From Candidatus Woesearchaeota archaeon (lineage in GTDB: Archaea > Nanobdellota > Nanobdellia > Woesearchaeales > GW2011-AR9): a DNA stretch of 64,000 bases. The position numbers and the translations under genes were made by a program. The notes beneath the pieces were generated by a model that was not told the origin of the DNA, made no database searches, and saw nothing but the letters and a program-made list of their open reading frames with translations. The DNA is taken from NCBI GenBank assembly GCA_043797205.1, contig JAZDQB010000013.1, positions 12,979 to 76,978 of the forward strand. Direction: 5' to 3'. Shown piece after piece: positions 2,821-63,819 of this stretch. Each line of letters begins with the position of its first letter. Within the stretch, counting starts at the first letter, position 1.

Positions 2821-2858
2821 TTTGTTATTTGTTTAGCATTATCAAGTTAAGGTTACCT

Positions 2859-14002: not shown

Positions 14003-14172
14003 GAAAACCACCCGCCTGGCCAATAAGAAGTGCTACCAACCTAAGGTCGAGTGCTTTCTTTTTCTTGGATGAAGCGATTAGGGGGAAGTCCCTTACGGGG
14101 ATGGTCGCTATCAAAGAAAATAGCGAGGCACGAGAAGCTGGTGGCAGTTAAACCGATGGCTAGGGTGGTTTC
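14003..14172. ncRNA. Structured element C1 (about 170 nt) with an apical M-module
   Basis: Terminal stem GAAAACCACCC/GGGUGGUUUC. Stem AGCGA/UCGCU (14073-77/14105-09) encloses GGGGGAAGUCCCUUACGGGGA. Track ORFs 13899..14114 and 14183..14365 here look spurious. Confidence 0.45.
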
Positions 14173-14222
14173 AAATAAAATCTTACATAAAATTTAAATA
14201 TCTCCTATTAACAATAGTTAAT

Positions 14223-43041: not shown

Positions 43042-43313
43042 AGGGGCACGCCCTCGGTCGAAACAAGATGGTCCTATTGGTTTGACCCAAAAAGCTTCTC
43101 GAGCTTGCAACCCTCTGAACATGGTACTGAAAAGTTAGTGCTGCTCCATTCCTGGCCTGACACGATTCCCTCACAGCCCATCCCAAAGGACAAGCCGTCG
43201 GCAAAACTTCCTGGACCAATAAAATCATAATGGCCCTTCCTCAGGCTTCGGCTCCGTGTGAAGTCCGTTCACGGTAACAACGCAGGACTAGCGCGCCAGC
43301 CTAGCTATCCCTC
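43042..43313 (-). ncRNA. ffs: SRP (7S) RNA
   Basis: The helix-8 signature GUCAGGCCAGGAAUGGAGCAGC matches the conserved CAGGUCNGGAANGGAGCAG. Helix-5 pairing UGGUCC/GGACCA. TATA TTTATAAG (43338..43345) lies 25 nt upstream of the GAGGG start. Ends are approximate. Confidence 0.75.
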
Positions 43314-49610: not shown

Positions 49611-50783
49611 ATGCTTCCCAACTACCAAAAGAACAGCCTGGTCAATCTGATGAGTTCAGTGATTCAAGGATGTGGTGGAAAGAGTTCTTATAATGATCTG
49701 CCTAAACTAACCGAAGAGATCAAATTCAAGAAGAATCTGGTTCTTTTGGTTATTGATGGGATGGGAACCGATCATCTGGCTAAACTAAAAAAGAAAAATA
49801 AGCATAGTTTCTTGGCTAATCACTTCTCTCAAAATTTAACTTCCGTCTTCCCTTCCACCACTACAGCCGCCATTACTACTTTTTTTACTGGTAGGACTCC
49901 GCAAGAACACGGATTGGCGGCGTGGGATATGTATTTAGATGAAATTAAAGATATCGGGACGGTTTTACGTAACACCGATAGTTGCGGAAAACCAATCTCT
50001 CCTGGAAAGTTGAAATATCCTTCTTCACTGCTCGATACCATTACTAGAGAGAAGCATTTCATCCAACATCAACAAATTATCAATACTCCTTTTACTAACG
50101 CTTATACTTCTAAAGCAGTCAAGTGGAAAATCAGAAATTTTAACGGTCTTCTGAACAAAATACCGTTAGCGATAAAGTATCATCGCCAAAACAGTAGTCC
50201 TAAAAAGTTTATTTATGCTTATTGGGGGGATTTAGATTATTATTCTCATCATTTCGGGAAGGACCATCATAGGACCCAGAAGCATTTGCGGGATTTAGAT
50301 CGTTCTTTAGGAAAATTCTTCTCTAAATTCAAGAGAGAGGATACTTTGGTGTTGATTACTGCTGACCATGGACATATCAATACTCCTAAAGAGCGCAGTA
50401 TCCTCTTAAGTAATTCTCTTGAAATAGTGGATTGTCTAAGAATGCCTCCGGCCGGAGAACCACGAGCCTTGTTTTGTTATATTAAACCAAATAAAAAGAA
50501 AGATTTTGAAAAATATGTTAAATCTAAGCTAAATAAATATTGTACTTTATATCCTTCTAAACAATTAATCCAAAAAGGATATTTTGGAGTGAGTAAAGGG
50601 AAAATTCATCCTAAACTGTTAAGCCGGTTGGGAGATTACGTTTTGATCCTGAAAAAGAATTATGTCTTTAAATATGTAGAAAAGGGAGAAAAGGTAAGAA
50701 TACATTTAGGGAATCATGGTGGAATTAGTAAAGATGAGATGATAGTACCTTTGATTAAATTTAAACTCGACGATAAACATTAG
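49611..50783 (+). CDS. Alkaline-phosphatase-superfamily protein (type I phosphodiesterase/nucleotide pyrophosphatase-like)
   Basis: VIDGMGTDHL, FPSTTTAAITTFFTG, ITADHGH. Confidence 0.7.
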   Translation: MLPNYQKNSLVNLMSSVIQGCGGKSSYNDLPKLTEEIKFKKNLVLLVIDGMGTDHLAKLKKKNKHSFLANHFSQNLTSVFPSTTTAAITTFFTGRTPQEHGLAAWDMYLDEIKDIGTVLRNTDSCGKPISPGKLKYPSSLLDTITREKHFIQHQQIINTPFTNAYTSKAVKWKIRNFNGLLNKIPLAIKYHRQNSSPKKFIYAYWGDLDYYSHHFGKDHHRTQKHLRDLDRSLGKFFSKFKREDTLVLITADHGHINTPKERSILLSNSLEIVDCLRMPPAGEPRALFCYIKPNKKKDFEKYVKSKLNKYCTLYPSKQLIQKGYFGVSKGKIHPKLLSRLGDYVLILKKNYVFKYVEKGEKVRIHLGNHGGISKDEMIVPLIKFKLDDKH

Positions 50784-51597
50784 ATTCTCCTATCTTTCTA
50801 AACTTTCCTTCGCTTCTTTTTTCTAACTCTCCCACAAATTGATTGTAATCCGTCATTCTATCTCTTTGTAAATTTCCTCCTCGCCAAACGTATCCTCGAT
50901 TAACTTGATAAGAGTCTCCTAAAAAGAGTAGATCTCCCGGACAAAGATTATCTGCTAAATTTGAAAGAGCCAGTTCTTTTCCTTTTTGATTAAGATGCAT
51001 AAGTAGATTTAAACAGAATATAGCGTTATATCCGGAAGGTACTTCTTCTAAGAGGATATCTTGTTGTTCGAAATTACATCTTTCCACAATATCGGGACTA
51101 ATTATTAAATTGGGGGAACGATCTCGCTTCCGCTTTCTTTTTTGAATCCTAAAATATTTTTTTTCCAAGAAAGGTTCTAACAGATCCTTCTTCGCTTGTT
51201 CTGCCCAATATTCTCTCTTTTTGGCTCTCTTCACTAAATGATCACAGAGGTCTCTTCCTTCTACTGCAAAATCTCTAAATCCTTGATCCCAAGCTAAAGT
51301 AGCTAAACTATATACTTCCTGTCCGCTGGAACAAGGTAGGGAAAGAATTTTAGTTGGATTTCCTTTAGAATTATTCTCTTGGAAAAGAGGAAGAAGATAT
51401 TTATCAAACACTCGAGTTATCTCTTTAGAAAAGAAGGAGGTGCGATGATCTAATCCTTGGCAGTGAAATTCTTGTACTAAACGTTCTAATGATATTCCTA
51501 CCAGGGGTCTTCTCAAATCTCTTACAAATTTTAACCAAGTGCCTTCTCCGTAATATAATTTAACGTAAGATCGAAATTCTTCCGGAGAGGAGAACAT
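50761..51597 (-). CDS. CheR-like SAM-dependent methyltransferase
   Basis: ILSLPCSSGQEVYSLATLA (compare CheR AGCSTGEEPYS) and AIFCLNLLMHL. Confidence 0.5.
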   Translation of the reverse strand: MFSSPEEFRSYVKLYYGEGTWLKFVRDLRRPLVGISLERLVQEFHCQGLDHRTSFFSKEITRVFDKYLLPLFQENNSKGNPTKILSLPCSSGQEVYSLATLAWDQGFRDFAVEGRDLCDHLVKRAKKREYWAEQAKKDLLEPFLEKKYFRIQKRKRKRDRSPNLIISPDIVERCNFEQQDILLEEVPSGYNAIFCLNLLMHLNQKGKELALSNLADNLCPGDLLFLGDSYQVNRGYVWRGGNLQRDRMTDYNQFVGELEKRSEGKFRKIGESNVYRRV

Positions 51598-51658
51598 AAT
51601 TTAATATAATTATTGAAGTATAAAAGAATTGTGCAAATAAAAAGATAAATAAAAATAT

Positions 51659-52045
51659 TGTATTTGTTTAGCTAACAGAAGCTTTGCCATCCTTCGGTCG
51701 AGCTTCTTCTGTATTAACAGCGAACTGACGAGGGGGGACTTGCCCCCTACGGGGAGCGTCAGTGATTTATAAGAACATCGAGAGCGAGAAGATGGCAAAG
51801 CTTCATTAGTGGCAAGAGCATTTTCAAAACTCCAGAAGATAATATTGGTGGCTCTGTCCTCCCGTAGGGAGCATCCCCTGACAACGAGCCTGCTTCTACA
51901 ATAAAGTCGTTTCCACCAGTTGTTGCTGTCAAGCAACTCACGAACGTAGTGACTTGATCTGACCGGTGGTGGTCGCGAGCATTTTGACAAATATGGGTTT
52001 TGACCTTATGATGCTCTTGCCGCTTCGGAAAGCTAAACAAATACA
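51659..52045. ncRNA. Structured element C2 (about 387 nt): 15-bp terminal stem, two long arms, two M-modules in opposite orientation
   Basis: TGTATTTGTTTAGCT/AGCTAAACAAATACA. Arms closed by GCUUUGCCAUC/GAUGGCAAAGC and GGCAAGAGCAU/AUGCUCUUGCC. M-modules at 51725..51762 and 51850..51890. Track ORFs 51610..51990 and 51759..52187 look spurious. Confidence 0.45.
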
Positions 52046-52062
52046 AAATATTAAGCAAAAAA

Positions 52063-52494
52063 TTACTTTTTCTTAGCTGCCGGAACTTCCGGACCGGTTC
52101 TGACCTTAGGCAGAGGCAGAGGACTGGGCAGGCTGATTTCTTCGCTGATCTTAATGGCTTGAATATTCCCTTTGTGCAGAGCAGCATTAATGACTTGCTC
52201 CATGATATCTATGGGAATCTTCTTTTCCTTCTCCCAGCTTTTTTTTACTTCATCAATCTTGGATTTTACATCTACAAACAGGATCTGCCCTTCCACTTCA
52301 ATCTTGCCTAAGTCCGGCTCATAATTGCAAGTGAAAGAGAAAGTAAACTTTAAACCGGTTTTTCCTTCTACTTCAAAAGCGAGATCTTCCACGTTTTTAA
52401 TAGAAACGTTATTATTGATCTTAATCTGTCCACCGGCGGACTCTAAATTTCTTTCCGCATTAACCTTATGGATATTAATTTTAACGATTGTCAT
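52063..52494 (-). CDS. Hypothetical protein
   Basis: 143-aa ORF with plausible composition. No motif recognised. Confidence 0.5.
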   Translation of the reverse strand: MTIVKINIHKVNAERNLESAGGQIKINNNVSIKNVEDLAFEVEGKTGLKFTFSFTCNYEPDLGKIEVEGQILFVDVKSKIDEVKKSWEKEKKIPIDIMEQVINAALHKGNIQAIKISEEISLPSPLPLPKVRTGPEVPAAKKK

Positions 52495-63217: not shown

Positions 63218-63679
63218 ATGCCCACAAAAATGTCCCGTTTCGGTATCGGACCGTGGTTTGCTACACTTTCTATAATTTATACTTTAATCGTTCTGGGAGT
63301 AAGTCATTTCTTTTTACCGCTGCAATTCTATTTAGTATCTCTTATCGTAAATTATGTTTTAGGAGCAATCTTAATATTTTTTGGATTAGTTTTCTTCTTT
63401 CTTTCTGCTTATCAGTTGCATAGAAATTTTAATTCCGAAAAATTGCAAACTAAAGGAGCCTATGCTTTTATGCGTCATCCCATTTACGGAACGTGGATTG
63501 TATTTATCGTCCCGGGATTAGTTCTAATTTTTCCTTATTTACTGGGAATTACGATTCCGTTTGTGATGTATGGGATATTCCGCTTGCTGATTGTGAAAGA
63601 AGAAAAGTACCTTCTTAAACGGTTTGGGAAGAAGTATTTAGAATATAGCAAAAAAGTTCACCGTGTTTTTCCGTTCTGA
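63218..63679 (+). CDS. Isoprenylcysteine carboxyl methyltransferase (ICMT)/phospholipid methyltransferase family membrane protein
   Basis: LQTKGAYAFMRHPIYGTWIV and EEKYLLKRFGKKYLEY. Confidence 0.75.
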   Translation: MPTKMSRFGIGPWFATLSIIYTLIVLGVSHFFLPLQFYLVSLIVNYVLGAILIFFGLVFFFLSAYQLHRNFNSEKLQTKGAYAFMRHPIYGTWIVFIVPGLVLIFPYLLGITIPFVMYGIFRLLIVKEEKYLLKRFGKKYLEYSKKVHRVFPF

Positions 63680-63685
63680 GAACGA

Positions 63686-63810
63686 ATTTGTTTAGCATCT
63701 TCGAAATCTTTGCTGTGCTATTGTGGTAGCCGCATCCCCGTAAGGGACTACCCCCTGCGGCTGTAATAAGCATTTATAGAGAGATTTCGACCTGATGATG
63801 CTAAACAAAT
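63686..63810. ncRNA. Structured element C3 (about 125-nt long hairpin) with an apical M-module, between convergent genes
   Basis: ATTTGTTTAGCATC/GATGCTAAACAAAT. UCGAAAUCU/AGAUUUCGA. AGCCGCA/UGCGGCU enclosing UCCCCGUAAGGGACUACCCCC. Confidence 0.45.
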
Positions 63811-63819
63811 ATATAAAAA

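Follow-up and report, generated by a model that had tools for sequence, protein, structure and literature searches.

A probable composite miniature inverted-repeat element with a conserved structured tip in a Woesearchaeota genome

What occupies the strongly folded, GC-enriched spacer between two genes of a Woesearchaeota genome: the gene of a structured RNA, or DNA that folds for another reason? The question is raised by positions 51660-52044 of a 64,000-nt stretch of Candidatus Woesearchaeota archaeon (GCA_043797205.1, contig JAZDQB010000013.1, positions 12,979 to 76,978), referred to here as the window. An earlier note, made from the sequence alone, had described this locus as a non-coding structured element, either a folded RNA or a hairpin-forming DNA element, which carries two of the window's four copies of a module made of a C-run, a G-run and a second C-run. 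Our analysis indicates that the 385-bp element is very probably a composite miniature inverted-repeat transposable element (MITE), the tip of which would be kept by selection on the folded strand and the movement of which would depend on a DDE transposase.

Results

Terminal repeats, target-site duplications and empty sites

The element lies between two minus-strand genes, one for a CheR methyltransferase (50761-51597) and one for a 143-aa protein without a Pfam family (52063-52494). The CheR-like protein is 100% identical to an NCBI entry listed as 'MAG: Candidatus Woesearchaeota archaeon'. The GC enrichment described earlier is real: 200-nt windows within 51700-51999 have a G+C content of 0.475-0.50, compared to 0.367 for the whole window. 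The element is small and contains no internal transposase gene, and the two mechanical open reading frames (ORFs) that cross it have no Pfam match, in agreement with its description as non-coding. It is bounded by perfect 14-bp terminal inverted repeats of the form 5'-GT...AC-3', and directly outside both of them lies an 8-bp target-site duplication, AAAATATT, in an AT-rich target (Table 1). A 15-bp terminal stem had been proposed here (TGTATTTGTTTAGCT, 51659-51673, with AGCTAAACAAATACA, 52031-52045). Its pairing holds except for the outermost T/A pair, which belongs to the target-site duplication.

The same gene order is found in a relative (L001, GCA_964363875.1), the CheR of which is 68% identical; at this identity it represents a different species, not a strain. 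There, the spacer between the 143-aa gene and the CheR gene measures 58 nt, compared to 465 nt in the window. In the window, sequence conserved upstream of CheR picks up again right after the right-hand duplication. A 125-nt copy that follows an ICMT-like gene in the window (63218-63679) is also missing in the relative, where the two convergent genes abut. Taken together, the empty orthologous sites, the terminal repeats and the target-site duplications indicate that the element is a MITE. Indeed, we observe terminal inverted repeats, a duplication of fixed length, small size, dispersed copies and presence/absence polymorphism. The earlier note had named presence/absence insertions with target-site duplications, that is, a MITE, as the outcome that would speak against its proposal, and this is the outcome found.

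Strong predicted structure, GC enrichment and an intergenic position would also suit a free-standing, non-mobile gene for a structured non-coding RNA. However, a 396-nt stretch spanning the locus folds better than shuffled sequences on both strands (z = -6.9 and -8.0), a pattern that marks a palindrome in DNA and not an RNA made from one strand. The inverted termini are perfect and flanked by the 8-bp duplication, such duplications recur throughout the family, the orthologous site is empty, and this one element carries its two modules on opposite strands. No Rfam match was found at the gathering threshold anywhere in the window except for an archaeal signal recognition particle (SRP) RNA, a permissive E-value search of 51500-52200 gave chance-level matches only (E at least 2.2), and module loci in 15 other contigs had no Rfam match either, in line with the earlier statement that the element belongs to no known RNA family. 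We therefore consider an RNA gene of this kind very improbable. Of the two possibilities named at the outset, the hairpin-forming DNA element comes closest to what we find.

A family of elements with the same ends

Public metagenomes were scanned for the 11-nt core of both ends at a distance of 90-120 nt, leaving the interior unconstrained. The 109 stretches obtained were reduced to 98 unique elements, genome loci included, with the ends GTATTTGTTTAGC...GCTAAACAAATAC. Perfect 8-bp duplications flank 37 of the 98, and nine more match at 7 of 8 positions (46/98). All sit immediately outside GT...AC, exactly 2 nt outside ATTTG...CAAAT, and none were seen at other offsets; when left and right flanks were paired at random, about 0.1% showed duplications. 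The target sites are 75% A+T. The hairpin unit with the module is carried by 62 of these repeat-ascertained elements. The GT...AC ends enclose several unrelated interiors, among them a family rich in G/C-runs on contigs of approximately 53% G+C, and one transposase lineage seems to serve many passengers.

Ten loci (L137, L138, L140, L154, L177, L178, L183, L188, L207 and L208) have the same terminal repeats (GTATTTGTTTAGCG...) with 8-bp duplications around an unlike interior of 133 nt, which is rich in C5/G5-6 hairpins (CCCCCUUGGUAAGGGGG). They lie on contigs of approximately 49-55% G+C, and their hosts probably belong to a lineage other than the AT-rich Woesearchaeota. Two further loci (L162 481-622 and L235 3271-3400) combine the same ends with near-perfect, long palindromic interiors that contain no module.

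By analogy, a DDE-type transposase acting in trans would bind the terminal repeats and make 8-bp staggered cuts, which would give rise to the 8-bp duplications. The combination of GTATTTGTTTAGC termini with 8-bp duplications fits no family that we could name.

Two head-to-head hairpin units with a module at each tip

The interior of the element is made up of a long and imperfect hairpin unit of approximately 115-125 nt that bears the module at its tip and is present twice, in inverted, head-to-head orientation. This arrangement accounts for the opposite strands of the two modules. An outer helix, a bulge motif (CGACCGAAGG and UGACCUUAUG) and a module are present in each unit. Outer helices of 11 bp had been proposed for both arms. 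This length is correct for the second arm; the first is closed by 14 bp, formed by GAAGCTTTGCCATC and GATGGCAAAGCTTC.

A single-unit element in another Nanoarchaeota metagenome-assembled genome (MAG; locus L115, 5854-5988) shares 77% identity with unit 1 over 138 nt. Between the two, the outer helix P1 shows two compensatory double changes, and the terminal repeat of the L115 element is different (AATACTTTAACTT). The module of unit 1, C2, scores 29.5 bits with the covariance model (E=2.4e-5). Unit 2 has a pyrimidine-rich 3' bulge (CCTTATG, 52004-52010), and its ends, AGCATTTTCAAAAC...GTTTTGACCTTATGATGCT, fit the consensus of the 125-nt family. The 'type 2' core of its module C3 (UCCC-GUA-GGGA-GCAU-CCCC-U) recurs in many family members. 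A second copy of the two-unit composite was not found among the loci compared.

The interior shared by the 62 elements has a constant layout when read on the module strand from the outside inward. The terminal repeat leads into the outer helix (GCAUCUU... with ...GAUGC), which is followed by the helix UUCGAAAUCC/GGAUUUCGA with a pyrimidine bulge of 3-4 nt (CCU/CUU) on the 3' side only. Approximately 25 variable paired positions come next, then the closing helix and the module itself: a C-run, a short G-initial loop, a G-run, a linker of 3-6 nt and a C-run.

Several known RNA motifs were compared with this layout and rejected. A kink-turn, the site of L7Ae, has a 3-nt bulge followed by tandem sheared G-A/A-G pairs and needs GA on both strands. 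Here, the strand facing the CCU bulge reads ...AUC-UU-CGAAA without a GA, and GA after the bulge is not conserved (CCUUAGG, CCUUAUG). The archaeal bulge-helix-bulge has two 3-nt bulges on opposite strands with a 4-bp helix in between; across the central helix, the would-be partner of the 5' CCCC is another C-run, not a G-run. Resemblance to H/ACA RNA, 5S RNA or RNase P was dropped, as their defining features are missing in the sequence.

Table 1. Coordinates of the element, its parts and related features. Positions refer to the window unless a locus is named.
Feature	Position	Strand	Details
Left target-site duplication copy	51652-51659	.	AAAATATT; identical 8-mer at 52045-52052; offset and length match the family-wide rule
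Left terminal inverted repeat	51660-51673	+	GTATTTGTTTAGCT; perfect reverse complement of 52031-52044; termini recur in 98 unique elements
Hairpin unit 1	51678-51804	-	P1 51678-51691 with 51791-51804; 3'-side bulge region ~51691-51697; from minimum free energy folds
Module copy C2	51725-51762	-	Closing helix CTGACG/CGTCAG, 51725-51730 with 51757-51762; core CCCCGUAGGGGGCAAGUCCCCCC, 51732-51754
Hairpin unit 2	51811-52021	+	P1 51811-51821 with 52011-52021 (11 bp); P2 51824-51830 with 51997-52003; from the fold
Module copy C3	51850-51890	+	Closing helix GGCTC/GAGCC; core CCUCCCGUAGGGAGCAUCCCCUG, 51858-51880; 29.9 bits
Extra branched segment in unit 2, ~100 nt	51891-51996	+	CCACCAG...CCGGTGG hairpin; missing from family members of 123-131 nt
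Right terminal inverted repeat	52031-52044	-	AGCTAAACAAATAC (plus-strand reading); pairs with 51660-51673
Right target-site duplication copy	52045-52052	.	AAAATATT; same 8-mer as 51652-51659
Single-unit MITE family member with module C4, 125-129 nt	63684-63812	+	Module 63728-63762 (+); site empty in relative L001
Unit with module C1, 178 nt, strongly folded	14003-14180	-	Module 14073-14109 (-); closed by AAACCACCC/GGGTGGTTT; 50.3 bits
Truncated 3' end of a family member, 22 nt	2827-2848	-	AACTTGATAATGCTAAACAAAT on the minus strand; compared with family 3' ends
Three-way-junction loci in other genomes	L014 2700-2900, L022 1660-1860, L023, L062, L066, L104, L106, L118, L119, L125, L048

Pairing and covariation in the module

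The earlier note had pointed out that the helix enclosing the module is unrelated in sequence from copy to copy, yet always complementary. A larger sample bears this out. In a set of 48 distinct module contexts, each of the seven closing-helix pairs shows changes on both sides; 85.6% of the cells are paired versus at most 44% when the partners are slid by 1-3 columns, and the covariation score is 0.686 versus 0.159 in shuffles. Many of the differences are single-pair swaps while the rest of the helix stays constant, for example GCUGACA/UGUCAGC, GCCGACA/UGUCGGC and GUUGGCA/UGCCAAC. The helix P2 shows compensatory change as well (UUCGAAAUCC/GGAUUUCGA versus UUCAACGCU/AGCGUUGA). When whole units were aligned with MAFFT and folded with RNAalifold, only the outer helices were recovered, and the variable centre aligned poorly.

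The apical hairpin shows two independent compensatory changes, from UCCC/GGGA to UUCC/GGAA and to CUCC/GGAG, which fix the register of the hairpin between the 5' run and the G-run. The apical loop varies freely (GUAA, GUA, GUG, GUAU, GGAU, GGAC, GAG, GCA, GAAU) and so does the linker (CUU, CAU, CAA, CCAU, GCAAGU and others), and all three runs persist. The proposal that the central G-run can pair with either C-run agrees with constrained folding of 57 family members, in which the predicted energies of the two pairings differ by a median of 0.8 kcal/mol and pairing with the 3' run is predicted to be the better one in 39 of the 57. In the model that we favour, the G-run would pair with the 5' C-run, and the 3' C-run would compete for it at nearly equal predicted energy.

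The hairpin with the 5' run is thus supported by covariation. The 3' run may act as a competitor, a third strand or a single-stranded binding site. In the CUCC/GGAG lineage, and in this one lineage, the 3' run also gains a U (CCCUCU), which could match the A in two ways, by antiparallel Watson-Crick pairing or within a parallel third strand. Since the changed base is central (GGAG and GAGA are symmetric), the parallel and antiparallel registers are inseparable. In the GGAA lineage, the 5' run changed and the 3' run did not. A second covariance-model search added no new lineages.

Spread of the module across genomes and other transposon ends

The exact 20-mer core, CCCCGTAAGGGACTNCCCCC, was scanned in one genome per species (GTDB representatives). 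It was found in 115 stretches with approximately 120 copies from 45 assemblies. All 28 assemblies with non-CA* accessions are labelled as archaea, one as 'archaeon' and nearly all as Woesearchaeota, Nanoarchaeota or Nanoarchaeia. The 17 with CA* accessions are labelled 'uncultured Methanosarcinales archaeon' (16) and 'uncultured archaeon' (1). The assemblies with a Methanosarcinales label share MITE families with Woesearchaeota MAGs, and some of them have proteins 56-69% identical to those of the window; these labels may be placeholders. Up to 16 contigs per assembly carry the core, and several assemblies reach 15-16. The exact core had no match in viral contigs, and the matches of a loose module pattern there were set aside as GC-rich chance matches.

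The module is not tied to the GT...AC ends. Assembly CAZRPY01 contains a second MITE family (L021, L030, L067, L079, L096) with the same module at the tip, approximately 165 nt between the ends, terminal repeats of 15 bp (GGCTCTGTCCTAAAT) and duplications of 9 bp, clear in five cases; it is present on at least 15 contigs. Overall, the module rides in MITEs with at least three types of terminal repeat and two duplication lengths. In one copy (L079, 4340-4426), the apical loop of the module is split by an insertion of approximately 50 nt (CCCCGUAA-[hairpins]-GGGACUUCCCCC), which is compatible either with a loop that tolerates insertions or with a disrupted copy.

At about 12 loci, the module is found on one arm of a three-way junction of approximately 100-120 nt (Table 1), in which the junction GAC-GG...CC-UAC...GUC is conserved and the stems covary. 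A/T-rich boxes were noted by eye 20-27 nt upstream. These loci have no recognisable transposon ends and no Rfam match, and their flanking genes differ between genomes, so that there is no synteny as for a fixed RNA gene. They could be older, decayed elements or genuine RNA genes. At two of them, L014 and L022, a second, inverted module lies just downstream.

Strand and orientation

The C/G/C order of the module and the pyrimidine bulge are always found on the same strand. We infer that the unit, and above all its tip, may be kept by selection on the fold of one strand, because pairing rather than sequence is conserved, the asymmetric features keep to the same strand, and MITEs that differ in their terminal repeats carry the same unit. 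The module most likely acts as a folded single strand, either RNA or single-stranded DNA.

The evidence on RNA or DNA is mixed. Folding of the arms is favoured by 1.5 kcal/mol on the module strand (47 versus 32 cluster representatives, p ~0.01), and mismatches in the arms comprise 285 G-T versus 214 A-C. Nearly all copies lie in intergenic regions. Where the neighbouring genes are co-directional, the module is oriented at random (20:21 among exact-core copies, 8:10 among repeat-ascertained ones), which argues against a role that depends on co-transcription with host genes. Divergent and convergent gene pairs flank copies in 41 versus 6 cases in one set and in 2 versus 15 in the other, a difference that suggests families with unlike insertion preferences. 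C-GNA-G triloops make up more than half of the apical loops. Such triloops are notably stable in DNA rather than in RNA, and this is a weak hint at DNA.

These data bear on a possible, though in our view clearly less probable, explanation: that the hairpin unit is a functional small RNA or a protein-binding RNA platform of Woesearchaeales, for which the transposon ends are merely the vehicle. In this case, the module would act after transcription, as a two-state hairpin or as a pyrimidine-purine-pyrimidine triple. The core is invariant in 45 assemblies around which arms, loops and linkers vary, four helices covary, the unit is framed by three kinds of terminal repeat, folding is slightly better on the sense strand, and one lineage of approximately 14 copies changed the 5' run, the G-run and the 3' run jointly (CUCC/GGAG/CCCUCU). 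The three-way-junction loci, which carry the module without transposon ends and have upstream A/T-rich boxes, would fit as well. However, their lack of synteny does not, the orientation of the module is random relative to co-directional genes, and the ratio of G-U to A-C mismatches, 1.33, is far below that of typical structured RNAs. Furthermore, the triloops that form over half of the loops are of the DNA-stable type, and the three-way change is confined to a single lineage, the GGAA lineage having altered its 5' run only.

The triloops also recall a different mode of movement, in which the hairpin would be moved as single-stranded DNA by an HUH/Y1 enzyme (of the REP/RAYT type or derived from IS200/IS605) with the tip as its recognition or cleavage hairpin. 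In DNA, GNA and GNNA loops closed by C-G form stable mini-hairpins, GTAG or GTAA is part of the core, and a conserved tip on variable stems resembles the origins or ends recognised by HUH enzymes. Insertion of REP/RAYT elements and IS200/IS605 derivatives leaves no target duplication, and terminal inverted repeats are lacking in both. Membership in these groups was rejected here, as fixed 8-bp duplications and inverted termini are present: the duplications accompany fixed GT...AC ends in 46 of 98 elements, and the other family has duplications of 9 bp. In addition, no Y1/HUH gene was seen adjoining any copy, in a search that was not exhaustive. We consider movement by such an enzyme very improbable.

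Other copies in the window

The four module copies have exactly the sequences and positions given in the earlier note. The pattern CCCGTARGGRN{3,9}CCCC matches these four places only, with 0 matches expected (100 shuffles), and a covariance model trained mostly on copies from outside this genome recovers exactly the same four. In addition to the composite element with C2 and C3, the window contains a single-unit family member with C4, a 178-nt unit with C1 and a truncated remnant (Table 1), in total three elements and one remnant. The C1 unit contains the family motif CGACCUUAGG; it could be an older, decayed MITE or a genuine RNA gene.

The remnant lies 6 nt upstream of the ATG of a small gene encoding a helix-turn-helix domain (2440-2820) and now forms its immediate upstream region. 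The archaeal SRP RNA, the sole Rfam match in the window, is located at 43043-43311 on the minus strand and scores 118.7 bits versus a gathering score of 96.5.

Discussion

We have described the element at 51660-52044 as a composite MITE with a tip that appears to be under selection on a folded strand. Several points weigh against this reading. Neither an autonomous element nor a transposase with matching termini was found in the window or in approximately 1.6 Mb of fetched sequence: in these loci, ordinary genes and no transposase lie between repeat pairs at a distance of 0.5-4 kb, and the 21 ORFs of the window that were scanned with Pfam are housekeeping genes that include no transposase. The composite two-unit form was seen once; it may have arisen by a single rearrangement and not be mobile as such. 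Within the window, the C4 element has no recognisable duplication, and the C1 unit has neither GT...AC termini nor a duplication. With regard to the selected fold, the closing-helix count was restricted beforehand to contexts with a helix of 5 bp or more, a threshold that 82 of 105 contexts reach (unselected contexts have a median closing helix of 7-8 bp), and the copies are related by descent, so that the statistics overstate their independence. The strand bias given by the ratio of G-T to A-C mismatches is modest, and the orientation of the module between co-directional genes is random.

The MITE reading alone does not explain why the module is conserved across 45 assemblies and different terminal repeats. 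According to a further idea, which we regard as doubtful, the tip would function as a nucleic-acid device of Woesearchaeales and would have spread through their tiny genomes by hitch-hiking in several unrelated transposon families. It would take the form either of a two-state hairpin, in which the G-run toggles between the C-runs, or of a short C+.G-C / U.A-U triple, in which the 3' run is placed along the hairpin.

Palindromic MITEs are well known from bacteria, for example ERIC/IRU in enterobacteria, Correia/NEMIS in Neisseria and RUP in Streptococcus pneumoniae. The family described here resembles ERIC/IRU, Correia and RUP in its size (100-400 bp), the absence of an ORF, terminal inverted repeats and target duplications, many dispersed intergenic copies, the fold into a long imperfect hairpin, and insertion polymorphism between relatives. 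Unlike them, it is found in DPANN archaeal hosts, its most conserved part is not the ends but the apical 20-nt C/G/C module, and this module is common to MITEs with different ends and duplication lengths. The BOX elements of Streptococcus pneumoniae are modular repeats with conserved internal boxes. They share with the present element the modular build, a conserved internal segment, composite forms with several modules and a strong predicted RNA-like fold, but have no clear terminal repeats or fixed-length duplications, and there is no sequence similarity. REP/BIME sequences, associated with RAYT, are likewise short GC-rich hairpins with a GTAG-like motif that occur in both orientations and are sometimes paired. 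REP sequences, however, lack terminal inverted repeats and target duplications, and within a genome they have conserved stems; in the present family, the tip stays constant on stems that vary.

An automated census published in Nucleic Acids Research in 2024 lists a 'Woesearchaea' genome among the archaea of highest MITE density, with 105 per Mb (PMC11602168). This density fits the three elements and one remnant in the 64-kb window. The passages of the census considered here, as distinct from the supplementary sequence files, which were not searched, mention neither the module nor the structure or the family (PMC11602168). A literature search likewise returned nothing on the MITE family or the module, although absence there is no proof.

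The locus also carries a caution for genome scans, as a mobile palindromic element can yield strong structure, GC enrichment and compensatory changes. The element is a mobile element of an ordinary kind, and the remaining interest lies in the conserved tip that is common to MITEs with different ends. The family can serve as a clean marker for Woesearchaeales contigs and provides dated insertions for population studies, and the GT...AC ends with the 8-bp duplication are a defined pair with which to hunt for the missing transposase. DPANN genomes are very small, yet some are rich in MITEs, and a structured tip of 20 nt stays invariant over dozens of species while its surroundings, transposon ends included, change. 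If the device reading were true, this tip would be a lineage-wide structured module of RNA or single-stranded DNA with a host or element function not yet described. If the tip is functional, for example in protein binding, in nucleating a fold or as a switch, it would offer a rare handle on the RNA or DNA biology of organisms for which growth on their own is not yet possible.

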